This document shows positions 1,935 through 56,125 of a stretch of DNA of 64,000 nt, one piece after another. The first letter of the stretch is position 1; each line of letters starts with the position of its first letter. The translations under genes were made by a program, and so were the position numbers. The stretch covers positions 21,179 through 85,178 of the forward strand of contig JBAYJV010000003.1 in the NCBI GenBank assembly GCA_041664925.1, in the 5' to 3' direction. Under the pieces are notes generated by a model. That model saw nothing but the letters and a program-made list of their open reading frames with translations, ran no database searches and was not told where the DNA came from. The DNA comes from Minisyncoccota bacterium (lineage in GTDB: Bacteria > Patescibacteriota > Minisyncoccia > JBAYJV01).

Positions 1935-2111
1935 AGCGCGAACAGAAGGTTTACGTGTAAGAAACTTAAATCTCTTAGTAAAAAATCTGACAGTAAATCT
2001 GCTAGTAGAATATATGAGGAGCCCTGGGCTCCTCGTTTTTTTATCCGCAAATTTTTGTTAAAATAAGCATACCGAATTTATTTAATCACCGAATTAATCT
2101 TTAAATCTTGT

Positions 2112-2131
2112 GTAGATGTCCGACATCTACA
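2112..2131. repeat. Perfect palindrome GTAGATGTCCGACATCTAC (REP-like). Second copy at about 19031-19051
   Basis: Seen directly. Lies immediately upstream of the RAYT-like gene at 2156. Confidence 0.8.
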
Positions 2132-2155
2132 ACATTTATACGATTTAGTAAAAAT

Positions 2156-2884
2156 ATGCAAAGAAATTTTTTGGTTGATGATTATGTGCATGTTTATAAT
2201 CGTGGCATAAAAAAGATGCCAATAGTTTATAACGAAGATGACAAATGGCGCTTTTTGAAAATTTTACGTTATTTTAATAATAATTTTTCAATTCCCAATG
2301 TTTTTCGTGATCTTGAATTGTCTACTCAAGAAGAAAAATATAAAAATTTTGAATGGCTTTCGACGTGGACACCTCAAGAACATTTGGTAAAAATCATAGC
2401 CTATCATTTATCTACTAATCACTTTCATTTGCTTTTGAAAGAAATTAAAAAAGGAGGTATTAGTAAATTTATGAAAAAATTTGGCAATGCTCTTACTGGT
2501 TATATTAATACTAAATATAGTGAAACAGGGAGATTATTTCAGGGAATTTACAAAGCAAAAACAGTAGAAAATCAGAGAAGTTTGGGATATATAGATACCT
2601 ATATTCAAGTACTGAATGCTTTCGAACAGTATGAGGGTGGAATCAGAGGTGCTATGAACAATTTTGACGAAGCATTTGATTTTGCCTTAAAATATCCATT
2701 CTGTAGCCTTGGAGAGAGTTTTGGATACAGAAAGCTAAATATTATAGATCGTGATATTTTAAAAAATATGTTTCCAAGCTTAAGTATATACAAAGAGGTT
2801 GTTCGCGAAGCTTTAATTATTAGACAAAACAGAGATTTCTTAGAAAACAATAATAACTCAAATTATTTCAACATTGAGTTTTAA
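2156..2884 (+). CDS. IS200/IS605-like HuH Y1 transposase-like protein, REP-associated tyrosine transposase (RAYT)-like, copy 1
   Basis: HVYNRG N-terminal motif. HuH motif NHFHLLL. GRLFQG plus a conserved Tyr region (GYINTKY). Paralogous to the copies at 40428 and 55442. Likely start is the ATG at 2156, not the track's TTG at 2108, which lies inside the palindrome. Confidence 0.7.
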   Translation: MQRNFLVDDYVHVYNRGIKKMPIVYNEDDKWRFLKILRYFNNNFSIPNVFRDLELSTQEEKYKNFEWLSTWTPQEHLVKIIAYHLSTNHFHLLLKEIKKGGISKFMKKFGNALTGYINTKYSETGRLFQGIYKAKTVENQRSLGYIDTYIQVLNAFEQYEGGIRGAMNNFDEAFDFALKYPFCSLGESFGYRKLNIIDRDILKNMFPSLSIYKEVVREALIIRQNRDFLENNNNSNYFNIEF

Positions 2885-2964
2885 TATAGATTCGGTGTTT
2901 AGGTCTCGGTGTTTAGGTTAGACCTAAACACCAAGTTAGAGTGTGATATATATGAATCATCTAT

Positions 2965-5597: not shown

Positions 5598-5607
5598 GAG
5601 CTGTCTC

Positions 5608-6484: not shown

Positions 6485-7345
6485 GCGTTCCTAAAATTCG
6501 AATATCAAAATTCGAATTTCGAAACCCCGTAAAATTCTTGTTGAGCAAAAGCGAAACTAGAATTTAGAGAGTCCCGCGAACTTCAATATTGATTCGATAA
6601 AATATAAATGAATTCACAGGGTCTTCGCAAAAACTATCACTCGTTTATGCTCGTTAAGTTTTGCGGGACAATATTTAAACCTAAAATTCTAAACTCCAAA
6701 CAGTTTAGGATTTTTTGTTTTAATGCTCAGAATCCTTATTTATGATAGGTAGTGTTTCGTATTTCGTGCTTCGGGTTTCGAGTTTAGCGTTGCTGGGGAT
6801 AACTTTTTTGACTGATTAGCAATTTAGTTTTAAAATAGCAATGTTTAATTATAAAAGAGTTTATACACATGAGGCCATCTGATTTTATTTTAGATCCCGA
6901 TAGACTAGACGATATTATTGGTTATATATTAACTGTTTTATTGTCTCTGTGGATGCTAGCTATTTGTTCTTTTATAAAAAGCAGAAAAAAGATAGCTTTA
7001 GTATATAAGCGTATTGTTTAAAAGTAAGTAATTGTGCACAAAGGGGATTTTCCTCTTTTTTTGTTATTTAAAAATGATACAATAAAGATGACTTTGATTA
7101 TGGAGATTGCTTTGGATCTTGGATTATAGACTCAAAAGGGAGTTCTATATTATCTGTTCCTTTGGGGACAAGATTGCGAACACCCCCGCCTTCGCTAAGC
7201 CCAAAGCTTAGTATGTCTGATGATAGGACTATAATCTCGCTTTTAGCGGGTGAGAAGGCACTGGTTTTTTACCAGGAGTCCCAAAGTTTTCTCCCAATCA
7301 AAGTCAATAAAAAATCTCTCATACGAGGGATTTTTTAATTTCGCA

Positions 7346-7378
7346 AATATGTGGGAGGCTCAGCCTCCCACATATTTC
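7346..7378. repeat. Palindromic REP-like element ATATGTGGGAGGCTCAGCCTCCCACATAT, copy 1 of 7
   Basis: Perfect 29-bp palindrome. Further copies at about 29213, 30948, 44961, 46148, 55376 and 56086. Confidence 0.85.
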
Positions 7379-13645: not shown

Positions 13646-14077
13646 ATGTCAATTGGCGAACCAGGAGAACCACAACCAAACGTAGAATTTGATCCGGAAA
13701 AACATGTAAAAATTCCTGAAGAGGAAGGCGGAGGTTTTGTTAAAAAAGAAGCATATGAAACACAAGAGTTAGCAAAACTTTCTGCAACTTACGCTAAAGC
13801 CCTAGAAAGACAACAAGAGATTACGGGGAAGGAAACTAATTTCCAAGATATATTACATAATGAGGCAAATAAAGAAAACAAAGAAAGTGATTTATCAGAA
13901 GAAGAGAAGCTCATAGAAAGAGTTAAGGATGGTAGAGCTAATTATCGAGACTTGCCAGAATATCAAAGGAGAAACCTTAAGGTTATACAAGTAGCCTTAG
14001 AACGAAATGCAAGATTCATTAACTTTGTTCCAGATGATATTAGGGAAAAAATAGAAAAAGGAACACAAGGATTGTAA
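13646..14077 (+). CDS. hypothetical acidic protein
   Basis: 143-aa ORF with an AAGGAA RBS. Confidence 0.4.
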   Translation: MSIGEPGEPQPNVEFDPEKHVKIPEEEGGGFVKKEAYETQELAKLSATYAKALERQQEITGKETNFQDILHNEANKENKESDLSEEEKLIERVKDGRANYRDLPEYQRRNLKVIQVALERNARFINFVPDDIREKIEKGTQGL

Positions 14078-14268
14078 AAATTTGATATTTTTCCGTTTTT
14101 AATTTTGAAAAAGCAGAAAAAACTGAAGAGAAATAATGATTTTTAATATTTATAAGAACTCTAATGTAATCCTTCAATTGCACTCAGGATATAAGGTTTC
14201 TATTTCTCGCTTATAGCTCGAAAAGAAATTCTAATAAAAGAGCGCGGAGTCTTTCCGCGCTGTTTTGT

Positions 14269-14664
14269 TTAGACCACTTTTTGGTCTTCTTTTTTGCTAT
14301 CAGGGTAGAAATTGTAGAGGATTCCTGCAATGATAAGCGAAGCAAAGAACCCACAGAAAGCAACCTTAAATACAACAACAGGAAGTCCATCATACCGACA
14401 ACTAAACCAATTAGTACCAATCATGATTATTCCAAAAATCACAAATCCAGATAAACTTACTTTCGCTCCTTTATTCTTCAAAACAGTATCAATGATACTC
14501 AGGAAGAACAATAACACATAAATTGAATTTAACGCATAGATGCCGTCAAATGACTTGTTGGGAGATCCGTTAAAAGAAATAAACCCTGCAATGAGGATGC
14601 CAACTATGAAAAAAAAAGCATTGTACTTGCAAACCACTCTAATGACTTTTCTCAAAGAACTCAC
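14269..14664 (-). CDS. hypothetical membrane protein
   Basis: Four predicted TM segments. Confidence 0.35.
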   Translation of the reverse strand: MSSLRKVIRVVCKYNAFFFIVGILIAGFISFNGSPNKSFDGIYALNSIYVLLFFLSIIDTVLKNKGAKVSLSGFVIFGIIMIGTNWFSCRYDGLPVVVFKVAFCGFFASLIIAGILYNFYPDSKKEDQKVV

Positions 14665-14899
14665 CTCCCTAGGTTAATTTAATTGTAACTCTTATAGACA
14701 AAAAATCAATATAAAACAATAAATTTGACTTATCGTCTTTTTTTAAATATGCAAGGCAATTTAAAACATTGACAAGTAATCATGTTTATGATAGAATGGG
14801 CAACGGTTGGCAAAAGATTTGCTTTTGTCAAAGTTCTTATGACAAAAGATTGGCTTTTGTCAAAGTTCTTATAAAAATAAATAGGAAAAGGGAGGAAAA

Positions 14900-16270
14900 A
14901 TGCAAGAGAAACACGAGAGGAAGCCGCATTTTGAGACAGATGGCATTCATCATGCCACTATCAGAGGACATCGGTTCCATCTGAGATTAAAGGATCCGAT
15001 CAGTGACAACTATCTTTGGATTGATGGTAAAACCTTACTTGTTATTGGTCCAAGAGATGCAAATTTTGTCCGTTATATCATTGAAGCAATGTGGAAGTTT
15101 TTAAATGGCGAAGGTGATCGGATTGAAGAAGCTGCTAATTGGATTGTTGATCAGATGAAAAAGATGTATCCCAAAGTTAATCGTCGTCGAATTCGCAAGG
15201 ATCTTGACAGGATTTTTGACACCTTAATGGCGATTGCCGAAAGCGGATGTCCGGTTGAGGTCCTAGGAGAAGATGATGTTCGCGAAGTGCGATACGATAA
15301 ATGGGTCGCGCCAGCGCGCATGGATCTTGCAGTCACTGGCCGTTGTAATCTGAATTGTGGAAAATGTTATCGAGGCGGTAGCCAGATTATTCAAGAATTA
15401 GATCTTGATGCGTGGCGTAAGGCTTATGGCATTCTTTGGAATGCTGGGGTTCACCAGATTGTTTTTACTGGTGGAGAGCCAACTCTGCGCGACGATATTG
15501 TTAAGCTAGTCAGCGAAGCAGATGAGTTTGTCACAGGGCTTGTAACTAACGGAACGAATCTTGAAGCATTAGCAGAAGAATTATTTGCAGCGAGCCTTGA
15601 TTATGTTCAAGTAACGATTGAGTCTTGGACTTCTGCGATTCATGATGCAATGACTAATACTCCTGGCTCTCATGTCAGGACGGTTGCTGGCATCAAGAAA
15701 GCGCTTGAGGTTGGTCTGAGCGTCTCAACAAACACGACGCTTACCAAACAAAGCGCAGCAGGATTTCTTGAAACTATCAGATTCTTGCATTCGCTTGGCG
15801 TAAAACATGTTGCCTGTAATAGTCTTATTTGCAGCGGGCGTGGAACTGCTTGCAAGATAGAGAATGGTCTTAGTGACCAGGAACTTGCAGGAATTCTTGA
15901 ACAAGCTTGCGAATTAGCTGATGAACTTGGAATGGAATTCCAATGGTATTCGCCGACGTGCTACACTCTTGGCGTAAATCCCATTGATCTGGGATTAGGT
16001 GTTAAGACTTGTTCAGCGGCGTCATATAATATGACGATTGAGCCAAATGGTTCTGTGCTTCCTTGCCAATCCTGGCCGGAGAGTGTCGGAAACATTCTCG
16101 TGGATGATTGGAAGAAGATCTGGGAACATCCGGTTTGCGTTCAGTTGCGCAATCATGCGATGAAAGCGCTTGGATGCGGAGGATGCGCTCACGAAACTAC
16201 TTGTGCGGGTGGGTGTCCGCTCGACAAGACACCGCGCCAAAAGACGACCAGCAAAAAGGAGTGTGCGTAG
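14900..16270 (+). CDS. Radical SAM protein with a C-terminal SPASM/twitch Cys-rich domain (peptide- or protein-modifying maturase type)
   Basis: TGRCNLNCGKCY (CxxxCxxC) and GGEPTLRDD. C-terminal clusters CNSLICSGRGTAC and CGGCAHETTCAGGC. Confidence 0.75.
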   Translation: MQEKHERKPHFETDGIHHATIRGHRFHLRLKDPISDNYLWIDGKTLLVIGPRDANFVRYIIEAMWKFLNGEGDRIEEAANWIVDQMKKMYPKVNRRRIRKDLDRIFDTLMAIAESGCPVEVLGEDDVREVRYDKWVAPARMDLAVTGRCNLNCGKCYRGGSQIIQELDLDAWRKAYGILWNAGVHQIVFTGGEPTLRDDIVKLVSEADEFVTGLVTNGTNLEALAEELFAASLDYVQVTIESWTSAIHDAMTNTPGSHVRTVAGIKKALEVGLSVSTNTTLTKQSAAGFLETIRFLHSLGVKHVACNSLICSGRGTACKIENGLSDQELAGILEQACELADELGMEFQWYSPTCYTLGVNPIDLGLGVKTCSAASYNMTIEPNGSVLPCQSWPESVGNILVDDWKKIWEHPVCVQLRNHAMKALGCGGCAHETTCAGGCPLDKTPRQKTTSKKECA

Positions 16271-16272
16271 CC

Positions 16273-17232
16273 ATGAAAAAGCTCTATCTGTTGGCAACGC
16301 TTGTTTTGCTCTGTGTCTTCGGCGCGTGCGTTTTTGCCGATGACACCGGAACCTATAAGATTATTGATTATAAAGTAACCTTAAATCCACAGATAGACGG
16401 ATCGTTTTTGCTGGGTTGTTACCAGAAATGGGAAGTAACTAGTGGCCATATCCCTTGGATTACCGTAGGACTTCCTAATAGCGGATTTAGTATCAAGAAT
16501 TCAGGACTTAATGTTAAAACCATTAAATCTGATAATTCTAGTGATTGGTCAGGAGTCAGAATTGACCTTGATAATGATTATAAGCCTGGACAAACATTCG
16601 AGGTTTCCTTTGAAGTTAGCGTCAAGCTTCTTGGTCAAACAAAGGAAGGATATCGGATTAGCTATACTCCCGGTTGGTATGATCGGGCAGTAACAGATAG
16701 GCTAACGATCGTTCTGGATTTGACCACGCTTACCAGCGATACGTCGGGCATTAAGACCAATCCACAACCAACATCAACTAATGCTTCTCAGCTTACCTGG
16801 GAAAAGACTGGTTTAACAAAAGGCGAACACTTTGCAATTACTATTGACTTGCCAAAGACAATCTTTCCTGAAGTTGATCAAAAGAATGTTCATAAAGGAT
16901 TGTCAGGCGTAGCATGGTTTTTCATCATTATTGGAATAATCGCCGGTGTTATCATTATAGCTTTCCTTATTGGTGCTATGGATGATGGCGGTTATTCCGG
17001 CGGTGGCGGCATCTTTGTTGGCGGAAGTGGTGGTGGCGGTGGAAGAAGCTCGGGTGGCGGTGGCGGGTTCGGCGGCGGAGGATTCTCCTGCGCTTGTGCC
17101 TGTGCCTGCGCTTGTGCTGGTGGCGGCGGAGCGGGTTGTTCTCGCAAAGCTGACCATACTTGTCCGCTATGCCGGGACTCTCGTCAGAAAAGGAATAGAA
17201 TCAATCTTTTTAAAAGGAAGCGCCATGAATAA
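16273..17232 (+). CDS. DUF2207-like membrane protein: signal peptide, extracellular domain, one TM helix, Gly-rich cytoplasmic tail
   Basis: Architecture and tail GGYSGGGGIFVGGSGGGGGRSSGGGGGFGGGGFSCACACACACAGGGG. The CACACACACA stretch is encoded by an in-frame (TGY GCY)5 repeat. Confidence 0.55.
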   Translation: MKKLYLLATLVLLCVFGACVFADDTGTYKIIDYKVTLNPQIDGSFLLGCYQKWEVTSGHIPWITVGLPNSGFSIKNSGLNVKTIKSDNSSDWSGVRIDLDNDYKPGQTFEVSFEVSVKLLGQTKEGYRISYTPGWYDRAVTDRLTIVLDLTTLTSDTSGIKTNPQPTSTNASQLTWEKTGLTKGEHFAITIDLPKTIFPEVDQKNVHKGLSGVAWFFIIIGIIAGVIIIAFLIGAMDDGGYSGGGGIFVGGSGGGGGRSSGGGGGFGGGGFSCACACACACAGGGGAGCSRKADHTCPLCRDSRQKRNRINLFKRKRHE

Positions 17233-18968: not shown

Positions 18969-19067
18969 AACGCAAGTGGAACTCGCAAAAGATCGCGAGT
19001 TCTTTTTTAATCCGCAATAAAAATAAAATGGTAGATGTCCGACATCTACACTAAAAAAAGGAGTCCC

Positions 19068-21800: not shown

Positions 21801-22019
21801 AAATTGATTATTATTCCCACCGAAGCTTGATACATAAGGGGTTTGGTGATAGAATGGAAAAAAATTAAAAGTTTAAAGTGCAAAGTGAAAAGTCAAAATT
21901 AAAAGTTCAAAATTAAACTTTAACTACTTATAATTAATATTTGGAAGTCGGACTTCCAAAGGAAGACCGACTTCCTTCAAACATTTTACATTTTTCACTT
22001 TAAATTTTAAACTTGAAAC

Positions 22020-24551: not shown

Positions 24552-24582
24552 AAATATTTGGAAGTCTCACTTCCAAATATTT
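24552..24582. repeat. Palindrome AAATATTTGGAAGTCTCACTTCCAAATATTT. Second copy at about 28004-28034. Related GAAGTCGGACTTC-core palindromes at about 21949-21975 and 29651-29667
   Basis: Seen directly. Lies upstream of paralogous genes 1 and 3 of the MxREGEQF family. Confidence 0.75.
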
Positions 24583-24642
24583 GTTTAATGAACCTTAAAA
24601 ATATGTTTGAGGTCTCACCTCTAACATATTTCTCATATTGCT

Positions 24643-27183
24643 ATGTTTAGAGAAGGAGAACAATTTTTACATAAAAGAGACAGTCAACTGCACACTTCTG
24701 GTCCGGTGGAGCATGAAAAATATCGCAAAGAAATGGCAGGCGAGGAAACTTCACAAAAACCAGTCGACAAGATCGCTGATTGGCTGAAAGTTATTGAAAA
24801 AACTCATCTGGAACATCGGGATGATCCAAGAGTTTTAGAAAGAATCAAGGAGTATTACCACGATCAGTTTGTCATTAAACCAGAAGATGTTCCTGAGAGT
24901 TATTATGAAAATCAAAAAAGAATAGCTCGAGAACAAGGTCATGGCGATATTGAAATTCCTGAACGGATAAGAGAACAAGGAAGAGAGGTAATTATTAATG
25001 ATCAAAAATCTACTCTGGATAATTGGGTAGATTATTTTATTTCTCATGATTCTGAAAGTTTTCCAATGTGGGCAAAGTATTGGGCATTTAATGGGATGCT
25101 CAAACTCTCAACTTTTGATAAAGAAAAACATGTTTTTGGAAAACGAGATAAAAATACAGTTGCCCCTTTTCCTGATCTTAATCGCGAAGCCCTAGCCTAT
25201 GTGATTGATGCTATTATTAAGAAAGCCAAGAATGAGAACATACCAATAGCGCAAGATAATCCAGAACTTCAGAAGCTTCTTGAAGGAGCCAATTTTGGCA
25301 AGCTATATATCTATGCGATTGAAAAAGTAACTCCCACAGAAACAAATGAACTTTTAAAAACAGAAGGAGAATGGGTTAGATATCCTCAAGAATCTGACCA
25401 TATGCCATTAGTCGAATCTCTCCAGGGCTATGGTACGGGTTGGTGTACAGCTGGAGAAAACACAGCAAAGGCCCAATTAGAAAGCGGTGATTTTTATGTA
25501 TATTATTCCCACGACAAAGAAGGCAACCCAACTATTCCCAGAGCAGCGATCAGGATGGAAGGAGAAAATATTGCCGAAGTCAGAGGCATTGGTCCACAAC
25601 AAAATCTTGATCCATATATTAGCGATGTTGTTGAGAAAAAATTAGTAGAATTTCCTGACGGTCAAGCTTACAAGAAAAAAACAGCTGACATGAAACGGCT
25701 GACAGAAATTGAAAAAAGAAATCTCAAAGGAGAAGAATTAACAAAAGAAGACCTAAGGTTTTTATATCAATTGGACACAAAGATTGAAGGATTTGGCTAT
25801 GGAAAAGATCCAAGGATTGAAGAGATTTTGAAAAAAAGAGATATTAAATCCGATCTTTCTTTAGCAACAGGATATTCAAAAGAGCAAATTAGCACAACAG
25901 GACAGGAGGCTTTTCAAAACAATATTGAAATTCATTACGGCGATATTTTTATTAATGATTTTGATCTTGAAGAATTGAGTTATTCTTTTGATAAACTGAA
26001 ATTTCCAAAAATAGTAACTGGAAGCATTTCATTGTCTAATCTAAACCATTTTGATCGAGTGGAGTTTCCAGAGGAAATCAAGGGTAATCTTGGGCTTGGT
26101 GATATTGTGTTTGTGGAAGGGATAAAACTGCCTAAAATCGTAGGCGGGAATCTTGATCTTGGTAGTATTGAGTCTGCCGTTGGTCTCGAATTACCAGAAG
26201 TAATAGATGGAAACTTATATCTTGGAGGTTTAGAATCTCCAGAAGGATTGAAATTGCCAAAAAAAATAGGCGGCACTCTTTATCTTAGCGGTCTTAAGTC
26301 TGCAGAAGGATTGGAATTGCCAGAAGTAGTAGGTGGTAGTTTGATACTTTATGGTCTTGAGTCTGCCAAAGGCCTAAAATTACCCAAAACAATTGGTGGA
26401 GAATTAGATCTTAATGGTCTAGAGTCTCAAGAAGGACTAGAATTACCAGAAACAGTAAATGGCAATCTTGGACTTAATAGTCTTAAGTCTGTCAAAGGTC
26501 TTAAATTACCAAAAATAGTTAAAGGATATCTTCATCTTAGCAGTCTTGAGTCTACTAATGGTTTAGAATTACCAGAAATACTAGGCGGACTTTCTTTGGG
26601 CGGAATTGATAATGTGAAAGATTTGAAATTACCAAGAACAATGAGCGAAAACCTTAATCTTGTTGGCCTTACATCTGCAGAAGGATTAGAATTTCCAGAA
26701 ACAGTAGGTGGTACTATTTATCTTAATTCTCTTGAGTCTGCTAAGGGGTTAAAATTACCGAAAACAGTAGGCGGAGGGATTCGCCTCAATGCTCTTAAGT
26801 CTGCTGAAGGATTAGAATTACCAGAAATAGTAAACGGTGACCTTGATCTTAGAGGCCTTATTTTTCCTCAGGGATTAAAATTGCCAAGGATAATAAAAGG
26901 AGATCTTTTACTCAATGGTCTTAAGTCTGCAGAAGGATTAGAATTTCCAGAAACAGTAAATGGCGAACTTGATCTTAATGGCCTTGTGTATCCTCAGGGA
27001 TTAAAATTGCCAAGGACGATAAAAGGAAATCTTTCGCTTAATGGTCTTAAATCTGTTGAAGGATTAGAATTTCCAGAAACAGTTGGTTTGACAATTTATC
27101 TCAATGGTCTTCCACGAACTATCAGGTTTGAAGAGATAAGAAGATTAAGAAAACAATACCCTGAATTAGCTTTTCATTATTAA
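24643..27183 (+). CDS. large protein with about 25 tandem 21-residue leucine-rich-repeat-like units at its C-terminus
   Basis: Repeats LP(E/K)xVxGxLxLxGL(E/K)SxEGL(E/K) alternate between LELPE and LKLPK types. The N-terminal MFREGEQF is shared with the next two genes. Confidence 0.6.
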   Translation: MFREGEQFLHKRDSQLHTSGPVEHEKYRKEMAGEETSQKPVDKIADWLKVIEKTHLEHRDDPRVLERIKEYYHDQFVIKPEDVPESYYENQKRIAREQGHGDIEIPERIREQGREVIINDQKSTLDNWVDYFISHDSESFPMWAKYWAFNGMLKLSTFDKEKHVFGKRDKNTVAPFPDLNREALAYVIDAIIKKAKNENIPIAQDNPELQKLLEGANFGKLYIYAIEKVTPTETNELLKTEGEWVRYPQESDHMPLVESLQGYGTGWCTAGENTAKAQLESGDFYVYYSHDKEGNPTIPRAAIRMEGENIAEVRGIGPQQNLDPYISDVVEKKLVEFPDGQAYKKKTADMKRLTEIEKRNLKGEELTKEDLRFLYQLDTKIEGFGYGKDPRIEEILKKRDIKSDLSLATGYSKEQISTTGQEAFQNNIEIHYGDIFINDFDLEELSYSFDKLKFPKIVTGSISLSNLNHFDRVEFPEEIKGNLGLGDIVFVEGIKLPKIVGGNLDLGSIESAVGLELPEVIDGNLYLGGLESPEGLKLPKKIGGTLYLSGLKSAEGLELPEVVGGSLILYGLESAKGLKLPKTIGGELDLNGLESQEGLELPETVNGNLGLNSLKSVKGLKLPKIVKGYLHLSSLESTNGLELPEILGGLSLGGIDNVKDLKLPRTMSENLNLVGLTSAEGLEFPETVGGTIYLNSLESAKGLKLPKTVGGGIRLNALKSAEGLELPEIVNGDLDLRGLIFPQGLKLPRIIKGDLLLNGLKSAEGLEFPETVNGELDLNGLVYPQGLKLPRTIKGNLSLNGLKSVEGLEFPETVGLTIYLNGLPRTIRFEEIRRLRKQYPELAFHY

Positions 27184-27204
27184 ATACATAAAGGCAATAT
27201 ATCT

Positions 27205-27978: not shown

Positions 27979-28037
27979 ACTTAAGCTGATTGATATATTT
28001 TGGAAGTCTCACTTCCAAATATTTGTTTAACATATCC

Positions 28038-29189: not shown

Positions 29190-29295
29190 ACTCTAAACTT
29201 TAAATAAATTGACATATGTGGGAGGCTGAGCCTCCCACATATGTCTTATTGACAATTGGTTATCTGTGTATTAATGTTGTAGTAAGGAGGGCGAT

Positions 29296-29571: not shown

Positions 29572-29715
29572 GAATTGTTCTTTGCCCGACACAGAAGAAA
29601 GTGTCGGGTTTTTTGATAGATATTTACTTTTTATTGCAAAACACAATCTTACGAAGTCGGACTTCGTAAAATTGTTATATCTCATTGGCATTCACAAGAA
29701 AATCTAATAAAAAGC

Positions 29716-30189: not shown

Positions 30190-30369
30190 ATTATGCCTAG
30201 GTCTTGGTGTTGAGGTTAGACCTCAATAGCCACCCTAATAACCAAGTTTTGTTTATTTTGTTATTTTTAGTAAGGAGAAAAGACAAAAAAACACCAAAAA
30301 GCTTGACTTTTTAATTAAATATAGTACAATTTGTGACAGAAGTAGATAAAACCAAAGAGGAGGAAAAAC

Positions 30370-30870: not shown

Positions 30871-31247
30871 ATCAATCGTTAGTGAAGTTTTGATGGGCGG
30901 TCAGAGGATCGCTCATCTTTTTTTATTACATTAATTTTTAACATGACAATGTGGGAGGCTCAGCCTCCCACATATTTCTTATTTAGATGTAATCCTTCGA
31001 CTTTGCTCAGGATATATCCTTCAATAGATTCAGGACAAGAAATTTTCTATATTTCATCATAATTCAACAAGAAAATCTAATAAAAAGCTTGCATTTTGGA
31101 GTGGAATGTGGTATAATGGTTGTTAAGAAGAGAGTTGTGTATGAGTTAGTCCTTCGACTGCGTCGCGTCAAACGCGACTCCGCTCAGGATGTAAGAGCTT
31201 CTAGATTCGATAGAAGCTCATCAAGAATCTCTAACAGGAGGAAGAAG

Positions 31248-32356: not shown

Positions 32357-32456
32357 GTTTTCGCAAATCAAAGTGGTGGGCGGTCAGAGGATCGCCCATC
32401 TTTTTTATGGCAAAAACACCATTTTGCTTGATTTTTGGAGTGAGGTGTGGTATAAT

Positions 32457-32594: not shown

Positions 32595-32996
32595 GTGACG
32601 CAAAGAAAGAGTGGACAAGAGATTCTTCTCTCTAAGTCAGTCTGTTTTGCCTTGGAAATGGTACGCATCTGCCTGTGGCAAGTGCCGACGGGAGTTTATC
32701 TTCTCAATGGACCATGGATGCAGATGAATATGGCGTCCAGCCTTATGGGGAACGAAAACCATGGATGTCGGCTTGTAACATTTTCAATTCTTGTCCATCC
32801 AAACACTCGCATCAGTGCTACCTGCAATGTTCGTTGTGTGAGTGGTGAATGGAGGACGGGTACGGTCGAGATCTGGCTGCTTGATGCCGAAGGCAAAAGG
32901 CGGGATGATAAGCGCTGGAAGTTCGATTGTCGATTCAACGAGAACGGCGATGGCGGGTGGAATATCCGTTGGTTGGATCCAATCAAGAGTCAGTAG
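32595..32996 (+). CDS. cassette ORF, about 133 aa with a GTG start, distant paralog of 44338 and 54862 (the C-terminus ...WNIRWLDPIKSQ matches ...WNPKWELVPLPKKSQ)
   Basis: The GTG directly follows GGGAGGAAACC, exactly analogous to GGGAGGAAAC-ATG at 44338. Type-2 terminator at 33008. Confidence 0.45.
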   Translation: MTQRKSGQEILLSKSVCFALEMVRICLWQVPTGVYLLNGPWMQMNMASSLMGNENHGCRLVTFSILVHPNTRISATCNVRCVSGEWRTGTVEIWLLDAEGKRRDDKRWKFDCRFNENGDGGWNIRWLDPIKSQ

Positions 32997-33007
32997 GAGT
33001 AAGAAGT

Positions 33008-33047
33008 GCGGCTCGGCGACAGAGGTTGCCGGGCCGTTTTTTTTGTC
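33008..33047 (+). terminator. Cassette terminator type 2: GCGGCTCGGCGAC-AGAG-GTTGCCGGGCCG hairpin followed by T8. Copies at about 38702 and 39178
   Basis: Three near-identical copies. Confidence 0.7.
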
Positions 33048-33303
33048 TAAAAAGGCAAAAAAAGTTTTTTATTTTAGGAGAAAATTAGATATAATGGCAT
33101 ATATAATGTAATTTCAAATTTTAAAATCCAAATTACAAACACGGGATTCTTCCCCTGTACCATACGGTACAGGGTCAGAATGACCCTCCTTCGCCCATCC
33201 TTCGTTAAAACTACGGATTGGCAAGCAAGACTACGGAAGGGCGAGGCAATAATTTCTGGATTTCTGCTTTCGCAGGAATGACACAATATATATAAATAAA
33301 ATT

Positions 33304-33810
33304 ATGGAAGAAGAAAATACTTCGACAAGCTCAGTACAAGTTGCTTCGACAAGCTCAGCACAAGTTGAAAATACAGAAGATATGGGGGATATAAGAGAGA
33401 AGAGGGATACGGGAGTAGCTCTTGGACAAGACTCAGGGCAAGTGGTTGAGGAAATACAAGTTGAATCGCAAGCAGATTCATCGCAACCATCTTCGCCTGA
33501 AATTACTGAGCCGGTTTTGCCGACGGTTCAGGTTGAGGAGACGCCAGTTGTTGCGCCGACGCAAAGCGCGAATTTTGATTTGCAAGGATTGGCAGAAAAA
33601 ATGAAGGCGGCGATTTTTGGAAGACGCGAGAAAAAATTGGCGAAAATTTTAGATTATTTGAATGCGAATGGGAAAATTAAAAATGAGGAGATTAGAAAAT
33701 TAGTCAGAGTTTCCAGCGCAACCGCTACGAGATATATGAATATTTTAGAAGAAAGAAAACAAGTTGAACAAATTAGAACAAAAAGACATGCTTTTTATAA
33801 GAAAATTTGA
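33304..33810 (+). CDS. hypothetical protein with a C-terminal winged-helix-like DNA-binding region
   Basis: Acidic, low-complexity N-terminus. C-terminus LAKILDYLNANGKIKNEEIRKLVRVSSATATRYMNILEE is HTH-like. Confidence 0.4.
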   Translation: MEEENTSTSSVQVASTSSAQVENTEDMGDIREKRDTGVALGQDSGQVVEEIQVESQADSSQPSSPEITEPVLPTVQVEETPVVAPTQSANFDLQGLAEKMKAAIFGRREKKLAKILDYLNANGKIKNEEIRKLVRVSSATATRYMNILEERKQVEQIRTKRHAFYKKI

Positions 33811-34126
33811 GATAGCTCTATGGCTCACATTGCGGGTTTGAATGGAGATTTCTATGGCTCAAATGGAAGAAATGAGCCATAGGGTGAGCCATTAAAAATA
33901 TAATAGAATATAGAAGTTAGAAGATAGAGGATAGAAGATAGAATAATTACAAACATCAAACATTAAATACGGGATGACATTTTTGTCCCCGGCGAGCCGG
34001 GGCCTCATAAAACCAATGATTCTCTCGCCTTTGGCGGATCATCAGGTTTTATGGGTTGTCCTCTTGTTATCTGGGGGCGTTTACTGGTAAAATAGGAACA
34101 GGTTTGCGTTTTGTTATTTACTTGAT

Positions 34127-34624
34127 TTGTGTTTTATTAACATGGGATTTTTAGATAAGATATTTGCAATGTTTAAAAAAGAATCGCCGATCGAAGGCAG
34201 TATTGATGGCGGTCCGATTGTGACGGGTGGCAGCGCTGATGGAGCGGAAATTGTTGGCGATCAAGGCGCAGCGAAAACCGTTGATTTTCCGGAGCAACCG
34301 GTGCAGCCTGGGAAACCGGAACAATCTGAGCAGTCTGAGCAACCTGAGCAGCCGAAAGAGGATGTTGTGGATATGGCGGGAGGGGCGGTTGGTGACGAGG
34401 CAGGGGTTATTGCGGAAAAACCTGTTGAACCTGAAACGGTTGAAAAAGAAGTAGCTAGTGTTGAGGTAGAACCGTTGGAAAAAGTAGAAGAAGTTAAGCA
34501 AGCTCCGGTATCAAATCCAGCGACTTCGATCGAAGAGTTGGAAGCGAAGATTGGGACTGGCGCAGAACCAGAGATTATGGCTCAAGAGGGCGGGCCAGAG
34601 GAAATGGATAAACCGGAAGAATAA
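34127..34624 (+). CDS. acidic, Pro/Glu-rich low-complexity protein
   Basis: Repeats of PEQ, SEQ and PEQ. Predicted disordered. Confidence 0.35.
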   Translation: MCFINMGFLDKIFAMFKKESPIEGSIDGGPIVTGGSADGAEIVGDQGAAKTVDFPEQPVQPGKPEQSEQSEQPEQPKEDVVDMAGGAVGDEAGVIAEKPVEPETVEKEVASVEVEPLEKVEEVKQAPVSNPATSIEELEAKIGTGAEPEIMAQEGGPEEMDKPEE

Positions 34625-34747
34625 TTTGTTTTGTTATATTAAATTAAAAAAATGATTAAATTAAAAAAAGCCAATCATGGCGCACGACCGGCATTAAGAA
34701 AAGCCCTTAAAAAGCACAAGAGAAAATAATATTAATTAAAATATATT

Positions 34748-38367: not shown

Positions 38368-38877
38368 TTCGTCCTCCTTGTTTTGACGAAAAGAACTTAC
38401 TATAACACTAGCATACAAACATCCCTTTGTCAATACTTATATCGATATATCGGAGGCTAAGCCTTCGATTTTTTTGTTAAAAAGAATAAAATTACCCAAA
38501 ACCCTTGCATTTTAATATTAATTGTGGTATAATAGGTAATGAAAGAAGGTTAGGGTTCAGCAACTCAAAAGTACTCAAACATCAAGCAAGAAGGAGGAAG
38601 TACGAAAGCACTAAAATGGGTTCTGATTATCGGCGGCATTGTGGGATTGATCTTCGGAGTTGGTTGCGCATTACTATGGATGGGTGTAGGCGGATAAGAA
38701 GTGCGGTCTGGCGACAGAGGTTGCCGGGCCGTTTTTTTATTAAAATCTGTCGAGGACGGTCCTAGACAGTTTTTATACCCAAAACACTTGCATTTTAGAT
38801 TAAGGTGTGGTATAATAGATAATGAAAGAAGGTTAGGGTTTTCACTCAAAAGCGCTCAAAGAAGGAGGAAGAGAGAA

Positions 38878-39171: not shown

Positions 39172-39214
39172 TGGAAGTGCGGTCCGGCGACAGAGGTTGC
39201 CGGGCCGTTTTTTT

Positions 39215-40307: not shown

Positions 40308-40336
40308 AATTTATCGAAGTCCGACTTCGATAAATT
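40308..40336. repeat. Palindrome AAATTTATCGAAGTCCGACTTCGATAAATT. Inverted-identical copy at about 41165-41194 on the other side of RAYT copy 2
   Basis: Seen directly. Confidence 0.85.
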
Positions 40337-40427: not shown

Positions 40428-41132
40428 ATGAAAAGGCCAGAATTTTTTTGTAATAAAATATATCATATTTATAACCGCGGCGTTGATAAGAGAAATATAT
40501 TTTTAGACGACATTGATAGATTTCGTTTTATTCACGATTTATTTGAATTCAATGATATTAATCCGGTATTTAATGCTGGTTATAATTTTAGAAACAAATC
40601 TATTGAAGTCGGACTTCAATATATTGATAATAAAAATAAACCGAGAAAATTATTGGTTGAGATTTTGGCTTTTTGTTTAATGCCGAATCATTTTCACTTA
40701 CTTTTGAGACAGAGAAAAGAGAATGGAATTACTGAATTTATGAGAAAATTAGGAACCGGTTATACCAATTATTTTAATCAAAAATATACAAGATCTGGCG
40801 TCTTGTTTCAGGGTAAATTTAAAGCTTTACTAATAGAAAAAGAAACTCATTTTATATATCTTCCACATTATATCCATACAAATCCACTAGACCTGACAGA
40901 TGCTAAGTGGCGACAAGATGGTATTTCAGGCTTAAATAAAATATTAAAGTTTTTAGAAGAATACCGTTGGAGCAGTTTACCCGATTATTTAAATAAGAAA
41001 AATTTTCCTTCAATTACTCAGCGTAATTTTCTTTTAGAAATTTTCGGAGGAGAGAAACAATACAAAAAAGATTTAACAGATATTATAAAAAATGGAAATT
41101 TTGAGGAAATAAAAGATTTAGTTTTTGAATAG
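40428..41132 (+). CDS. IS200/RAYT-like HuH tyrosine-transposase-like protein, copy 2
   Basis: YHIYNRG, PNHFHLLL (HuH), SGVLFQGKFKA and YIHTNPLD motifs. Confidence 0.75.
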   Translation: MKRPEFFCNKIYHIYNRGVDKRNIFLDDIDRFRFIHDLFEFNDINPVFNAGYNFRNKSIEVGLQYIDNKNKPRKLLVEILAFCLMPNHFHLLLRQRKENGITEFMRKLGTGYTNYFNQKYTRSGVLFQGKFKALLIEKETHFIYLPHYIHTNPLDLTDAKWRQDGISGLNKILKFLEEYRWSSLPDYLNKKNFPSITQRNFLLEIFGGEKQYKKDLTDIIKNGNFEEIKDLVFE

Positions 41133-41266
41133 CTCTTGAATATTTAATAACAAAGTTATTACTAAATTTATCGAAGTCCGACTTCGATAAATTAGTTTTT
41201 TTACTAGACTAGCTCATTCTTTCTTTTTTTTTGACAAAGAAATCTTATCTGGTAACATTGTTGTAT

Positions 41267-44784: not shown

Positions 44785-45110
44785 TCACTGCTTAGGAGAG
44801 CGGTTCGTCCCGGTAGAATTGGCGGACCCGTCCCGGTAGAAGTTTACCGGGACGCTTTTTTTATTGAAATTTATGTCATTCTTGCGAAGGCAGGAATCCA
44901 GTAACAATAAACAAAAACCGTCTAGGACCGTCCCGATAAAATAAATCCTCGACAGTTTTTGACATATGTGGGAGGCTGAGCCTCCCACATATGTCAGGGA
45001 AAATGGTATTGAGGTCAAACCTCAACACTTTCTTAATCTTATTTTGCTCGTCCTGCTTGGTTCGGTGGATTCGATAAACTCACCACAAACAAGCTCACCA
45101 TAAACTCCAC

Positions 45111-45316
45111 GAAGGAACTTGTCCTGAGAGAAGTCGAAGGAACTTGTCCTGAGAGAAGTCGAAGGAACTTGTCCTGAGAGAAGTCGAAGGAACTTGTCCT
45201 GAGAGAAGTCGAAGGAACTTGTCCTGAGCGAAGTCGAAGGAACTTGTCCTGAGCGAAGTCGAAGGAACTTGTCCTGAGCGAAGTCGAAGGAACTTGTCCT
45301 GAGCGGAGTCGAAGGA
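45111..45316. repeat. Tandem array of 8 units of 25 bp (GAAGGAACTTGTCCTGAGAGAAGTC), the reverse complement of the dispersed CCTTCGACTTCKCTCAGGACAAG motif
   Basis: Seen directly. The overlapping minus-strand ORFs in the track are judged repeat artefacts. Confidence 0.8.
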
Positions 45317-54131: not shown

Positions 54132-54670
54132 GGGTTACGTTCTTGAGGCAAAGAAAAGGTATACAGATGGAGACTGTCAGAGGAGCCGACAGTATCGGTT
54201 CCTACGATGTCGTAAGGAGAATTGTGGAACTCCTGGAAAGTTCGGCAACGAACTTGATCAGGGCGGGTAAAGACAATCTATTCCTCTACTCCTACGATAC
54301 CGTCACGGATGAACCAGTTTGTGATGTGTACCATGGATTTTTCGATAGTGATCGTAGATACTTACTCATCATTCTTCTGTATCAGGAATTGGACAGGAGA
54401 TTGAGAGATAAAAATCTCAATGGGTTTGAGGAGGGATTCGTCGGTGTTTACATGCCGGGACTTCTCGATAATCCAGAGATTAGTATCGAAACAAAGTTCA
54501 AGACGGTTGCTGCCGTTCTCTATGGCGGGGCGCGGCGACGAAGTGATGTCGAGCGTCTCATGGAGAAGGATTGGAAGGATCTCATCGCGGCGATCCGAAT
54601 CGCTCAGAGTGAGGGAATCGGCGCGGTCGAGGTTCTCAATTTCATCGAACAACAACCAGTTGCCGCTTAG
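54128..54670 (+). CDS. cassette ORF, 180 aa, paralog of 43476
   Basis: The shared C-terminus AVEVLNFIEQQPVAA matches AVEVLDLLEPVAA. Type-3-like terminator at 54681. Confidence 0.5.
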   Translation: MRVTFLRQRKGIQMETVRGADSIGSYDVVRRIVELLESSATNLIRAGKDNLFLYSYDTVTDEPVCDVYHGFFDSDRRYLLIILLYQELDRRLRDKNLNGFEEGFVGVYMPGLLDNPEISIETKFKTVAAVLYGGARRRSDVERLMEKDWKDLIAAIRIAQSEGIGAVEVLNFIEQQPVAA

Positions 54671-54861
54671 GAGAGCGGCCTGTCCCCCGGTAAACGACCG
54701 GGGGACTTTTTTATTGAAAAATATTGCATTTTATTAATTATATAGTATGATAAATTTGTTTCTTGATAGCGAATTGGTTGGAAAATATTCTTACTAATTT
54801 GCTGTCAAGACAGACAGTTATCTAGCAATCGGGCTGGATATTCCCAAGACAGGGAGGGTGT

Positions 54862-55287
54862 ATGGATTTTGTAAGTCGTGTCAATCAAAATCAGTCTAAA
54901 CATACTGCTCTTTTGGTGGCAGAACAGGCCTTTCGTCATAATTTTCCTGACGCCAAAATCATTGGAATTGATGGAGTGTTCAATTTTCTTTATATGGACG
55001 AGACGATACCACATTTGCTTGCGATTATTGATTACAGTTTTGAGACGGAAGAATGGCAGTGCCGAAAAGGAAAAAAGTATAACCAAGTTAGGATCTCTGT
55101 TAGTTTAAGAATGCATAGAGATTTTCCAACCTGGGTTCCTGTTGAAACGGTTAAAGTCATAAAGTTAGAAGAGTTTATTGAAGTCGATATCAAAACAGCT
55201 GAGTTTATTGTCAAAACAAGTCATGATGCCATGAGAGAATGGAATCCTAAGTGGGAACTTGTTCCTTTGCCGAAAAAAAGCCAATAG
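54862..55287 (+). CDS. cassette ORF, 141 aa, distant paralog of 32595 and 44338
   Basis: Third copy of the long leader. Variant promoter TTGCAT-16-TATGAT at about 54724. Hairpin terminator at about 55296-55328. Confidence 0.45.
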   Translation: MDFVSRVNQNQSKHTALLVAEQAFRHNFPDAKIIGIDGVFNFLYMDETIPHLLAIIDYSFETEEWQCRKGKKYNQVRISVSLRMHRDFPTWVPVETVKVIKLEEFIEVDIKTAEFIVKTSHDAMREWNPKWELVPLPKKSQ

Positions 55288-55441
55288 AGTTTCATTCAGG
55301 GGAGTCAGCGTGCTTCCCTGTTTTTTTGATTAAAAAAACTTATGTTATTTTATATTATTTCTATACCACTAATGAAATATGTGGGAGGCTCAGCCTCCCA
55401 CATATTTCAAATTCAAATATTAAATATGATATAATTTTAAT

Positions 55442-56125
55442 ATGAGAAAAATAGAATTCATAACATCCGATATATACTTATATCACATCTACAATCGTGG
55501 AGTAGACAAGCGAAACATTTTTTTAGAAAATGATGATTATGTTCGTTTTATTCATGATCTTTTTGAGTTTAACGATACAAGACCGGCTAGAGAATTTTCT
55601 CGTGCAAAAAATATAATTATTGATCAAGAGAAAAGAAAATTGAAAGTTGAAATTCTTGCTTTCTGTCTTATGCCAAATCATTTTCATTTATTATTAAAGC
55701 AAAAAGAAGATAGGGGAATTAAAGAATTTATGCATAAAATAGGAACTGGATATACGATGTATTTTAATAGGAAAAACAAGAGATCGGGAGTATTATTCCA
55801 GGGTAGATTTAAGGCAAAACTTATAGACAATGAACCATATTTCAAGTATATGCCCCACTATATTCATGCCAATGCGTTGGATTTATTCCAGTCTGATTGG
55901 CGTGAACAAAGCATAAAAAACATAAAACAAGCATTAGAATTTTTAAAAAAATATCGTTGGTCTAGTTGTTCAGATTATTTGGGGAAAAAGAATTTTCAAT
56001 CGGTTATATCAAAGAATTTTATTGATAGCATGTGGGGGAATTCAGAACATTATCAACAAGACCTTGAAGAATATATCAAAAATAGAGATATGTGGGAGGC
56101 TGAGCCTCCCACATATCTCGGATGA
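55442..56125 (+). CDS. IS200/RAYT-like HuH tyrosine-transposase-like protein, copy 3
   Basis: YHIYNRG, PNHFHLLL and SGVLFQGRFKA motifs. Flanked by the 29-bp GGGAGGCTCAGCCTCCC palindrome at about 55376 and about 56086, and the second copy forms the gene's 3' end. Confidence 0.75.
   Translation: MRKIEFITSDIYLYHIYNRGVDKRNIFLENDDYVRFIHDLFEFNDTRPAREFSRAKNIIIDQEKRKLKVEILAFCLMPNHFHLLLKQKEDRGIKEFMHKIGTGYTMYFNRKNKRSGVLFQGRFKAKLIDNEPYFKYMPHYIHANALDLFQSDWREQSIKNIKQALEFLKKYRWSSCSDYLGKKNFQSVISKNFIDSMWGNSEHYQQDLEEYIKNRDMWEAEPPTYLG

Follow-up and report, generated by a model that had tools for sequence, protein, structure and literature searches.

A 64-kb stretch of a genome from the Patescibacteria (candidate phyla radiation, CPR), which belongs to a 327-kb contig and is referred to below as the window, contains three genes for Y1/HuH tyrosine transposase homologues, here named RAYT1, RAYT2 and RAYT3, together with approximately 23 perfect or near-perfect palindromes. 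Our analysis indicates that these genes and palindromes probably constitute a system of the repetitive extragenic palindrome (REP)/REP-associated tyrosine transposase (RAYT) type, REPtron- or TIRtron-like (TIR, terminal inverted repeat), in which old Y1 paralogues each recognise a palindrome family of their own. A REP-RAYT-like system had been proposed for this DNA in a preliminary description, and the proposal is supported by intact catalytic residues, a fold match to TnpAREP, flanking and solo copies of the palindromes, and a pairing of gene and palindrome that is kept in orthologues. The anatomy of the system, strain polymorphism of the solo copies and upkeep at the DNA level of palindrome arms that lie in coding sequence were also observed.

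Public records of the contig place it in Candidatus Paceibacterota (Patescibacteria/CPR), in line with the CPR-like origin suspected earlier. Independent assemblies (ENA, JGI and NCBI) contain this DNA at 99.995-100% identity over an 18.5-kb overlap, and this agreement rules out an assembly artefact. Orthologous and paralogous loci were taken from public assemblies and are given as L numbers (L018 and L019 are two contigs from one strain and agree in sequence); the pairing of genes and palindromes was assessed in 17 genes with DNA. Copy numbers of the palindromes are known for the window and for fragments. A scan of viral contigs found no relatives, and there is therefore no sign of carriage by a phage.

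Three Y1/HuH genes and their palindromes

Three RAYT/IS200-like open reading frames (ORFs) had been described in the window, and their coordinates proved to be exact:

RAYT1, 2156..2884, plus strand: 242 aa; divergent Y1/HuH tyrosine transposase homologue with the HuH motif NHFH and a Tyr in TYIQV, with no NP after it
RAYT2, 40428..41132, plus strand: 234 aa; Y1/HuH tyrosine transposase homologue with NHFH, FQG, YIHTNP and a WSS tail
RAYT3, 55442..56125, plus strand: 227 aa; Y1/HuH tyrosine transposase homologue with NHFH, FQG, YIHANA and WSS, without a loop palindrome

All three proteins scored above the cutoff of 23 bits for the Pfam family Y1_Tnp (PF01797; 37.9 bits for RAYT1, 37.2 for RAYT2 and 41.0 for RAYT3), and a Pfam search of them at E<=0.01 returned no further family. 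The ATG start of RAYT1 is confirmed by an identical public protein (P0121, 242 aa). An alignment of 90 sequences shows no variation at residues H88, H90 and Y148 (RAYT2 numbering), which are present in RAYT1-3; they align with HMH and Y(IYINP) of E. coli TnpAREP b228 and with HVH and the Y132 region of ISDra2. The HuH and Tyr residues are thus intact in all three proteins, and the loss of the catalytic Tyr, which had been raised as grounds for abandoning the proposal, does not apply. The Y---NP signature reads YIHTNP in RAYT2, YIHANA in RAYT3 (P lost) and YIQVLN in RAYT1. The paralogues share 28-54% protein identity, with RAYT1 28-33% identical to the other two.

Fold prediction and fold search covered RAYT2. 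The AlphaFold2 model (predicted local distance difference test score 89.7, predicted template modelling score 0.86) is of low confidence at residues ~50-70, which correspond to a palindrome-encoded loop described below. Foldseek placed E. coli TnpAREP in complex with a REP hairpin (4ER8) as the best match in the Protein Data Bank (PDB; E 5e-7), followed by the TnpA proteins of IS608 and ISDra2 at E ~1e-4. A single-sequence PDB search with RAYT3 produced only spurious cyclin matches, and a profile search only a weak match to ISDra2 (E 0.05). The proteins have more than 7,800 homologues at E<=1e-5 in a database clustered at 90% identity, and 1,538 clusters at E<=1e-30 or 15,039 at E<=1e-10 in a 50%-identity library; the named homologues are mostly from Patescibacteria. 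RAYT1 belongs to a smaller family, with 330 matches. A candidate fourth paralogue on the 327-kb contig, P0029, was rejected, being RAYT2 itself.

The palindromes were collected by an exhaustive perfect-hairpin scan followed by a core-motif search that allowed one mismatch. They occur at a density of about one per 3 kb and fall into three core families, A (GGAGGCTNAGCCTCC), B (GAAGTCNGACTTC) and C (GATGTCNGACATC), the last with a variant C'. Family A, with the core GGAGGCT-N-AGCCTCC, has seven copies with the full unit GANATATGTGGGAGGCTSAGCCTCCCACATATNTC and two more with an ATCGG foot. Family B (GAAGTC-N-GACTTC) has eight, the loop variant GGAAGTCTCACTTCC included; the GAAGTC/GGAAGTCTCAC variants form a single family, tied to RAYT2. 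There are two copies of family C (GATGTC-N-GACATC) and three of the related C' (GGTGTTKAGGT-TAG-ACCTMAACACC). Solo copies number five for A (plus two variants), five for B (six with a degenerate tandem partner at 21962-21974), one for C and two for C'. The feet are GTGG..CCAC in family A, GTAG..CTAC (double foot) in family C, and ATCG, TTTGG or TTACG in family B. No palindrome match was obtained in 100 dinucleotide-preserving shuffles, and folding as single-stranded DNA (ssDNA) gave -5.6 to -18.4 kcal/mol with z values of -6 to -10. The copies are as follows (no strand is assigned to palindromes).

At or near RAYT1, and related copies:
2111..2131: family C, TGTAGATGTCCGACATCTACA, with a GTAG...CTAC double foot (GTAGATGTCCGACATCTAC = 2112-2130); 24 nt upstream of RAYT1; -6.5 kcal/mol, z -6.5
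2908..2932: family C', GGTGTTTAGGTTAGACCTAAACACC; 24 nt downstream of RAYT1, with a half copy before it (2894-2907); the same position is occupied by family C in L025
19031..19049: solo family C, GTAGATGTCCGACATCTAC, between convergent genes and beside a canonical terminator
30203..30233: solo C'-like, TAGGTCTTGGTGTTGAGGTTAGACCTCAATAGCC, from the core-motif search
45003..45031: solo C'-like, GGTATTGAGGTCAAACCTCAACAC, adjoining a family A copy

At or near RAYT2, and related copies:
40308..40336: family B, AATTTATCGAAGTCCGACTTCGATAAATT; in the spacer between RAYT2 and the divergent miaA, 91 nt before RAYT2
40601..40621: family B, TATTGAAGTCGGACTTCAATA, in frame in RAYT2 (codons 58-65, peptide SIEVGLQY, low-confidence surface loop)
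41165..41193: family B, AATTTATCGAAGTCCGACTTCGATAAATT, identical to the upstream 29-nt copy; 33 nt downstream of RAYT2
21940..21974: solo family B, TTTGGAAGTCGGACTTCCAAA, and an adjoining degenerate copy (21962-21974) as a tandem pair; hairpin scan and core-motif search
24552..24582: solo family B, loop variant AAATATTTGGAAGTCTCACTTCCAAATATTT, 8 nt past a gene like that for asparaginyl-tRNA synthetase (AsnRS)
~24597..24629: imperfect palindrome ATATGTTTGAGGTCTCACCTCTAACATAT, neighbour of the copy at 24552..24582 and an extra degenerate member
27999..28019: solo family B, TTTGGAAGTCTCACTTCCAAA; hairpin scan and core-motif search
29649..29669: solo family B, TTACGAAGTCGGACTTCGTAA, sharing its foot with the flanking and internal palindromes of the RAYT2 orthologue in L027

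At or near RAYT3, and related copies:
55373..55409: family A, TGAAATATGTGGGAGGCTCAGCCTCCCACATATTTCA; 32 nt upstream of RAYT3; -18.4 kcal/mol, z -9.7
56085..56119: family A, within the final 41 nt of RAYT3, encoding ..DMWEAEPPTYL; centre base inverted relative to the upstream copy
7345..7377: solo family A, directly after a conserved canonical terminator
29211..29245: solo family A, from the hairpin scan
30949..30973: solo family A, 32 nt after a canonical terminator (30892-30917 plus T-run)
44960..44996: solo family A, at the edge of a strain-variable segment
46151..46175: solo family A, within the strain-variable segment
19873..19897: A-core variant with an ATCGG foot, AAATCGGAGGCTAAGACTCCGATTT (one mismatch), a variant common beside family A copies in L006, L008, L012, L013 and L017
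38449..38469: A-core variant, ATCGGAGGCTAAGCCTTCGAT (one mismatch), from the core-motif search

Each gene had been described as bracketed by its own palindrome. This is the case for RAYT2, with copies at ~40308 and ~41165 and confirmed relatives at 21940-21960, 24552-24582, 27999-28019 and 29649-29669, and for RAYT3, whose five further copies are all present and whose downstream copy sits within the last 41 nt of the ORF. For RAYT1 the statement holds in part: the family C palindrome before the gene (2112-2130) recurs at 19031-19049 as reported, and the palindrome after it is of the related variant C'. Most copies lie 8-85 nt past a stop codon in co-directional or convergent spacers. The location of the palindromes between genes, also remarked on earlier, was confirmed: 2 of the 23 fall in real coding sequence, both in transposase genes, and the binomial P for intergenic bias is 2.6e-8 on a conservative count of four inside ORFs of at least 100 aa, which adds two palindromes in start-codon-extended ORFs (74% of the window is coding).

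Family A is a 35-nt unit with sharp edges in 22 non-redundant copies, and its one variable stem position mostly co-varies as A.T, G.C or C.G. Around these 22 copies, no flanking target or cleavage motif and no target-site duplication was found outside the 35-nt unit. A family A 23-mer had one chance match, in Nocardia, and no other in a species-representative genome collection; in metagenomes it identified 13 related stretches, all with further family A copies, and the source contig was not among them.

In the 17 genes with DNA, the core of the flanking palindrome matches the clade of the gene. The RAYT3 orthologues of L001, L005, L016 and L020 all carry family A, and in four of four the downstream copy is part of the 3' coding sequence. 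In a RAYT3 paralogue of ~56% identity (P0003 in L020; the second gene of L005), the palindrome is the compensated variant GTTGGAGGCT..AGCCTCCAAC; its doubly compensated form is written ATATGTTGGAGGCT.AGCCTCCAACATAT. At the RAYT2 orthologues of L018 and L027, the GAAGTC core is kept and the feet are changed with compensation (ATCG..CGAT in the window, ATTG..CAAT in L018 and CTTACG..CGTAAG in L027); the L018 counterpart of the upstream copy at 40308..40336 is the compensated variant TATTGAAGTC..GACTTCAATA. The RAYT1 orthologue in L025 has family C on both sides, the downstream palindrome overlapping the stop codon. Distant homologues from Nealsonbacteria, other Patescibacteria and an 'Omnitrophica' metagenome-assembled genome have palindromes of their own (CTTACGAGGC.., CTTACGAGGTT.. 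and TTTGGAAGTC..). No consistent orientation, as judged from the centre base, was found across upstream, internal and downstream copies.

The neighbours of all three genes are kept in relatives at 75-88% nucleotide identity, which argues that RAYT1-3 are vertically inherited and not mobile. RAYT1 lies between a radical-SAM activase gene and comEC, as in L025; RAYT2 between miaA and glyA, as in L018, L019 and L027; and RAYT3 downstream of dnaE and beside a tRNA-Leu gene, as in L001, L005, L016 and L020. Distant homologues are found in different gene neighbourhoods, and no tnpB appeared near the genes in the locus gene tables. The RAYT1 orthologue (L025 10001-10702 versus 2156-2884 in the window) shows 71% protein and 75% nucleotide identity and its flanking genes 83-88% nucleotide identity, suggesting that RAYT1 is evolving faster than the neighbouring genes.

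In-frame palindromes in RAYT2-type genes

Seven of seven RAYT2-type genes (the window, L018, L027, L021, L022, L023 and L024) carry, in frame at codons 49-63, a palindrome of the family that goes with the gene. The arms of this internal palindrome are perfect over 10-22 nt, third codon positions included, and its sequence is identical only in the L018 orthologue. Because the third positions are perfect in genes that are 53-60% identical in protein, the internal palindrome is kept at the DNA level and not via the peptide. The codons concerned encode a variable surface loop of low model confidence, which runs from the first helix to the HuH strand. RAYT3 and its orthologues have no loop palindrome and carry a copy at the 3' end instead.

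An exact back-translation search was used to examine the loops of homologues for palindrome-encoding capacity. The loop peptides are mostly translations of palindromes (..SYEVQPRKI.., ..SEVRLPKI.., ..YEAKPRK.., ..FGGSTSE..). Arms of at least 11 nt could be encoded by 71% of 117 loops, compared with 14% of shuffled loops and 8% of other regions of the same proteins; for arms of at least 14 nt the corresponding values were 41%, 3% and 2%. The hotspot is one 10-residue bin (66%), with a background elsewhere of at most 9% apart from an artefactual peak. That peak, a seeming second hotspot ~100-119 residues past HuH, was rejected as an artefact of the conserved KKNFPS peptide, an A/T-rich pseudo-palindrome with no DNA palindrome in RAYT2. 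Among 133 more diverse cluster representatives the hotspot was weaker (11-21% per bin over three bins), and the same scan of the RAYT1 family gave no intragenic hotspot.

Predictions made from protein sequence agreed with the DNA in two cases. For P0055, 23-nt arms were predicted and 22 nt were found, with matching flanks. For P0014, the loop peptide predicted CTTACGAAGTCGGACTTCGTAAG, which was found inside and upstream of the gene; the downstream palindromes of P0014 share the GAAGTC core and have other feet than predicted. The palindrome in a fixed loop of the ORF offers a handle on the co-evolution of enzyme and target, and a way to predict the target of a RAYT from the protein sequence alone, which succeeded for P0014 and P0055.

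The loop may simply tolerate a neutral passenger, or the copy may be a cis-regulatory or self-recognition element. On the reading that we prefer for the system as a whole, the intragenic copy would have a role, for example in autoregulation. We raise only tentatively the more specific idea that the in-frame palindrome is no tolerated accident but a conserved cis-element: a domesticated Y1 enzyme would use it to recognise the gene that encodes the enzyme, and this gene would be a member of the repeat population that the enzyme maintains. If so, autoregulation would be possible, for instance if the protein bound the hairpins of its own gene or cut and religated them; the copies would be continuously re-templated, and enzyme specificity and target sequence would co-evolve as one unit. 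A large TIRYT-like clade (TIRYT, TIR-associated tyrosine transposase), found throughout the Patescibacteria and until now believed to have no REPs, would then run a REP system, and the copy in the coding sequence of the enzyme would be the oldest and most conserved. A conserved in-frame cognate palindrome in the gene of a RAYT2-type enzyme is apparently a feature without earlier description.

The outer stem AATCTTAYGARG...CYTCRTAAGATT recurs in RAYT2-type palindromes of different lineages (L021, L023, L027 and many predicted loops), and this recurrence accounts for the widespread 'SYE..PRKI' peptide. The stem contains TTAC, the cleavage tetranucleotide of IS608, which may be a coincidence.

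Strain variation and alternative explanations

A comparison of REP positions between strains revealed turnover of solo copies at orthologous sites, with gains, losses and replacements. L013 has no counterpart of the family C copy at 19031, although the spacer is otherwise conserved and retains both flanking terminators. Past a conserved terminator at ~7300, three palindrome sets were found: family A in the window, a GTAG-type palindrome plus A in L013, and TGTGCATGACTCGGTCATGCACA plus a B-like palindrome in L025. Past the AsnRS-like gene (the 24552 site), the window has family B and a second palindrome, and L018 a decayed family A copy. The unpaired centre base flips between C and G at orthologous sites with the orientation of the flanks kept, as is expected from reinsertion or re-templating of a perfect palindrome. 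Different families often lie 25-50 nt apart in small arrays in related contigs, resembling bacterial interspersed mosaic elements (BIMEs). Some BIME-like arrays have a fixed spacing, with AAATCGGAGGCTNAGCCTCCGATTT followed ~25 nt later by family A (L006 6143-6225, L008 1087-1169, L012 2113-2286 and L017 5589-5671), to which L012 adds a B-type palindrome.

The preliminary description had allowed that the palindromes might prove to be generic terminators. This candidate was rejected: separate terminators, consisting of a hairpin of other sequence and a T-run, exist and often adjoin the palindromes. The stems of the canonical terminators are G+C-rich, with 4-nt loops, and T7 comes after the hairpin (GGTGGGCGGTCAGAGGATCGCCCATC at 30156, 30892, 31589 and 32375 is an example). 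Such terminators directly precede the palindromes at 7345, 19031, 30949 and 55373, and relatives keep them whether or not the palindrome is present. Some palindromes are upstream of genes or inside ORFs. The identity among copies extends over 29-37 nt and therefore points to copying and not to convergent structure. Two near-identical terminator families were seen, GGTGGGCGGTCAGAGGATCGCCCATC+T7 (30156-30181, 30892-30917, 31589-31614 and 32375-32400) and GCGGTCCGGCGACAGAGGTTGCCGGGCCGT+T7 (33008-33037, 38703-38732 and 39179-39208); shared terminators after a run of small plus-strand ORFs suggest paralogous small-gene cassettes with common 3' ends.

In the REP/RAYT-type system that we favour, three old and diverged ssDNA endonuclease-ligase paralogues of the HuH/Y1 type would each recognise the hairpin form of one family: RAYT3 that of GGAGGCT-N-AGCCTCC with the GTGG...CCAC foot, RAYT2 that of GAAGTC-N-GACTTC, and RAYT1 that of GATGTC-N-GACATC (GTAG...CTAC foot) together with the C' variant. 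The genes stay in place and are inherited vertically. The 20-37 nt palindromes would act as non-autonomous elements: in intergenic spacers they would undergo copying, loss, replacement and flipping, often landing beside real terminators and beside each other. The Y1 proteins would bind and cleave these hairpins and so drive their spread and homogenisation. The RAYT2-type clade keeps its cognate palindrome in frame in a disordered loop, and the RAYT3 clade has a copy as the 3' end of its ORF.

Several points weigh against this interpretation. The canonical GT[AG]G foot is missing from family B; where the class-2 Y---NP motif has NP, RAYT3 reads NA, and RAYT1 is without it. The palindromes of L021-L024 occur only at the gene (upstream, inside and downstream) and hardly elsewhere within +/-10 kb, and for this reason dispersal may be specific to certain lineages. 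That the Y1 proteins bind, cut or move the palindromes is inferred. The unit of gene and hairpins superficially resembles an IS200-type element, and perfect palindromes can be homogenised by hairpin-templated repair without a transposase. Copy numbers rest on 64 kb and fragments, and the 23-mer was found in 13 metagenome stretches only.

The palindromes might instead be host cis-elements, such as bidirectional terminators, mRNA-stabilising 3' hairpins or regulator sites, to which the Y1 genes are adjacent incidentally. Their position shortly past stop codons in co-directional or convergent spacers is what this explanation would lead one to expect; a simple terminator scan flags several of them, and E. 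coli REPs are known from the literature as elements of 3' untranslated regions. Function would require structure, however, and not 29-37 nt of identical sequence. Separate T-run terminators with other stems precede several copies, palindromes are also found ahead of RAYT1, RAYT2 and RAYT3 and within two ORFs, and orthologous spacers gain, lose or swap families between strains. The palindrome sequence also co-varies with the adjacent Y1 paralogue in 17 genes. We therefore consider a pure host function very improbable, and a secondary one may exist alongside the proposed system. Little more probability attaches to the hairpin-gene-hairpin units being autonomous IS200/IS605-like insertion sequences, with end hairpins as flanks and decayed remnants as solo palindromes. 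Like hairpins do bracket each gene in the manner of IS200, with 13-91 nt between hairpin and ORF, distant homologues lie in other gene neighbourhoods, and the palindromes of L021-L024 are almost confined to the gene. Yet the neighbours are kept in relatives down to ~75-80% nucleotide identity, and paralogues that are only 28-54% identical imply that there are no recent copies. Solo palindromes outnumber the genes by ~6:1 and have sharp 35-nt edges with no gene remnants; the Tyr motif, complete in RAYT2, is of the class-2 Y---NP type and not the Y---Q of IS200 (Quentin 2018, PMC6006769), and there is no tnpB nearby.

A third alternative dispenses with the transposase: the palindromes would spread and remain perfect by another route, such as hairpin-templated repair, replication slippage or gene conversion, and the Y1 genes would be merely preferred landing sites or inactive relics. 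Intrastrand pairing lets perfect palindromes correct themselves, the centre-base flips and the co-variation of the arms fit such processes, and the NP motifs of RAYT1 and RAYT3 are degenerate. Nevertheless, the invariance of the HuH and Tyr residues over thousands of homologues indicates purifying selection on catalysis, and the pairing of one gene with one family, with compensated variants for close paralogues, is hard to obtain with passive target genes. The closest solved structure, moreover, is that of an enzyme binding exactly such hairpins. This alternative is improbable in our judgement, and the REP/RAYT-type system remains the reading that we prefer.

Relation to known systems and other features of the region

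BLASTP against published TIRYT and RAYT sequences (from Di Nocera et al. 2013, PMC3733652) gave E values of 1e-17 to 1e-24 for TIRYTs, ~1e-6 for Pseudomonas RAYTs and 0.11 for E. coli b228. The best matches were the TIRYTs gbm2474, sml4509, dau2153, rba2408 and pca3049, with 25-31% identity over most of the length, and the alignment ends before their C-terminal extension. The NCBIfam equivalog model NF047646 for classical RAYTs of the E. coli type, subclass 2.2 (REP_Tyr_transpos; cutoff 80 bits), gave 39.0 bits for RAYT2, 45.7 for RAYT3 and no match for RAYT1. Judged by BLASTP and motifs, and not by the subclass hidden Markov models of Quentin et al., the proteins are closest to the TIRYT/subclass 2.1 branch and not to classical RAYTs of the E. 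coli/Pseudomonas type. TIRYTs correspond to TnpAY1 subclass 2.1 (Quentin 2018, PMC6006769) and to RAYT group 1 (Bertels 2017).

The system resembles the REPtrons of Proteobacteria (Nunvar 2010; Bertels & Rainey 2011; Ton-Hoang 2012; Messing 2012) in its single-copy, vertically inherited Y1/HuH gene with flanking and dispersed hairpins. As in E. coli (TnpAREP/YafM with REP-BIME) and in Pseudomonas and Stenotrophomonas (RAYTs with their own REP/REPIN class), one gene goes with one repeat family and there are several pairs per genome; that this relationship is established for Proteobacteria, as stated in the preliminary description, agrees with the literature. BIME-like mixed clusters, the GT[AG]G foot in families A and C, and the structure match to 4ER8 add to the likeness. 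In contrast to Proteobacterial RAYTs, the proteins described here are ~70 aa longer, have a WSS tail and come from a CPR host. Their repeats do not consist of a foot and an imperfect stem but are perfect double-foot palindromes whose loop measures 1-3 nt.

With TIRYTs/subclass 2.1, the proteins share the motif set NH[YF]H / FQ / Y[IV]H.NP / WSS. Unlike them, they have no distal C-terminal helix-turn-helix (HTH) domain (Bac_DnaA_C / HTH_23 / HTH_28-like) and end ~80 aa past the Tyr. TIRtrons have long TIRs, often with GGGGWSAS, whereas the flanks here are perfect palindromes of 21-37 nt in which no GGGGWSAS was seen. A likeness is that in some TIRtrons the flanking repeats overlap the 3' end of the gene and the TIRs are self-complementary, for example at S. 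maltophilia ORF 1152 (Di Nocera 2013, PMC3733652). REP-like sequences were not found for subclass 2.1 by automatic or manual search (Quentin 2018, PMC6006769), whereas the present system has obvious dispersed REPs and a palindrome-encoded loop insertion of ~20-30 aa. In-frame REPs within tnpAREP have been reported only for subclass 2.4, between HuH and Y (Quentin 2018, PMC6006769). That subclass, from Cyanobacteria and Bacteroidetes, also shares the double-foot GT[AG]G...C[TC]AC (here in families A and C) and an in-gene REP that keeps the frame, but the insertion here is upstream of HuH at one fixed position, and the motifs are FQ and YIHTNP versus WQ and YIxNNP. TnpA proteins of IS200/IS605 (IS608 and ISDra2) have the same fold, the catalytic HuH/Tyr and hairpins bracketing the enzyme gene; the present genes differ from them in a Tyr motif of the Y---NP type (complete in RAYT2) and not Y---Q, in not being multicopy, in stable synteny, in the absence of tnpB and in dispersed solo hairpins. 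Rickettsia palindromic elements likewise are palindromic repeats tolerated in frame in ORFs, but they are 100-150 bp long and insert into a wide range of unrelated genes, and no cognate enzyme is known for them, whereas here only cognate transposase ORFs contain palindromes.

REP/RAYT systems have so far been characterised almost only in Proteobacteria, and a search of the accessible literature found no description of one in CPR/Patescibacteria. A very large Y1 clade, from a branch (TIRYT / subclass 2.1 / group 1) reported without REPs, has clear cognate palindromes. In this streamlined CPR genome a load of about one palindrome per 3 kb is tolerated, and three enzyme/repeat pairs coexist within 64 kb. 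The system also makes compact, putatively specific pairs of ssDNA hairpin and enzyme available for biochemical study.

Other features of the region were observed. Directly downstream of RAYT3 are a small GIY-YIG ORF (56272-56514, 80 aa) and then tRNA-Leu(CAA) (56521-56646 region). A perfect 20-nt palindrome, CCTGCCTGCCGGCAGGCAGG, at 56627-56646 recurs in unrelated Patescibacteria loci (L021 17366-17389 and L022 3098-3117). The ~10 kb of the window at ~24640-34700 correspond to ~2.6 kb in L018 (2000-4600), and only short stretches align; this strain-variable island holds an 846-aa ORF, many small ORFs and five solo palindromes. The segment 44030-47700 is 3.7 kb long compared with 0.4 kb in L001 (2760-3157) and contains two family A copies, a 26-nt hairpin (CGTCCCGGTAGAAGTTTACCGGGACG) that occurs twice (44061 and 44829) and brackets a 166-aa ORF, and a 25-bp tandem repeat at ~45121-45315. 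Finally, ~59200-61750 contains many internal repeats of 60-200 nt with 68-85% identity and is also repeated in L001 (~13800-16300); these repeats may represent a repetitive protein gene or an intergenic repeat array.

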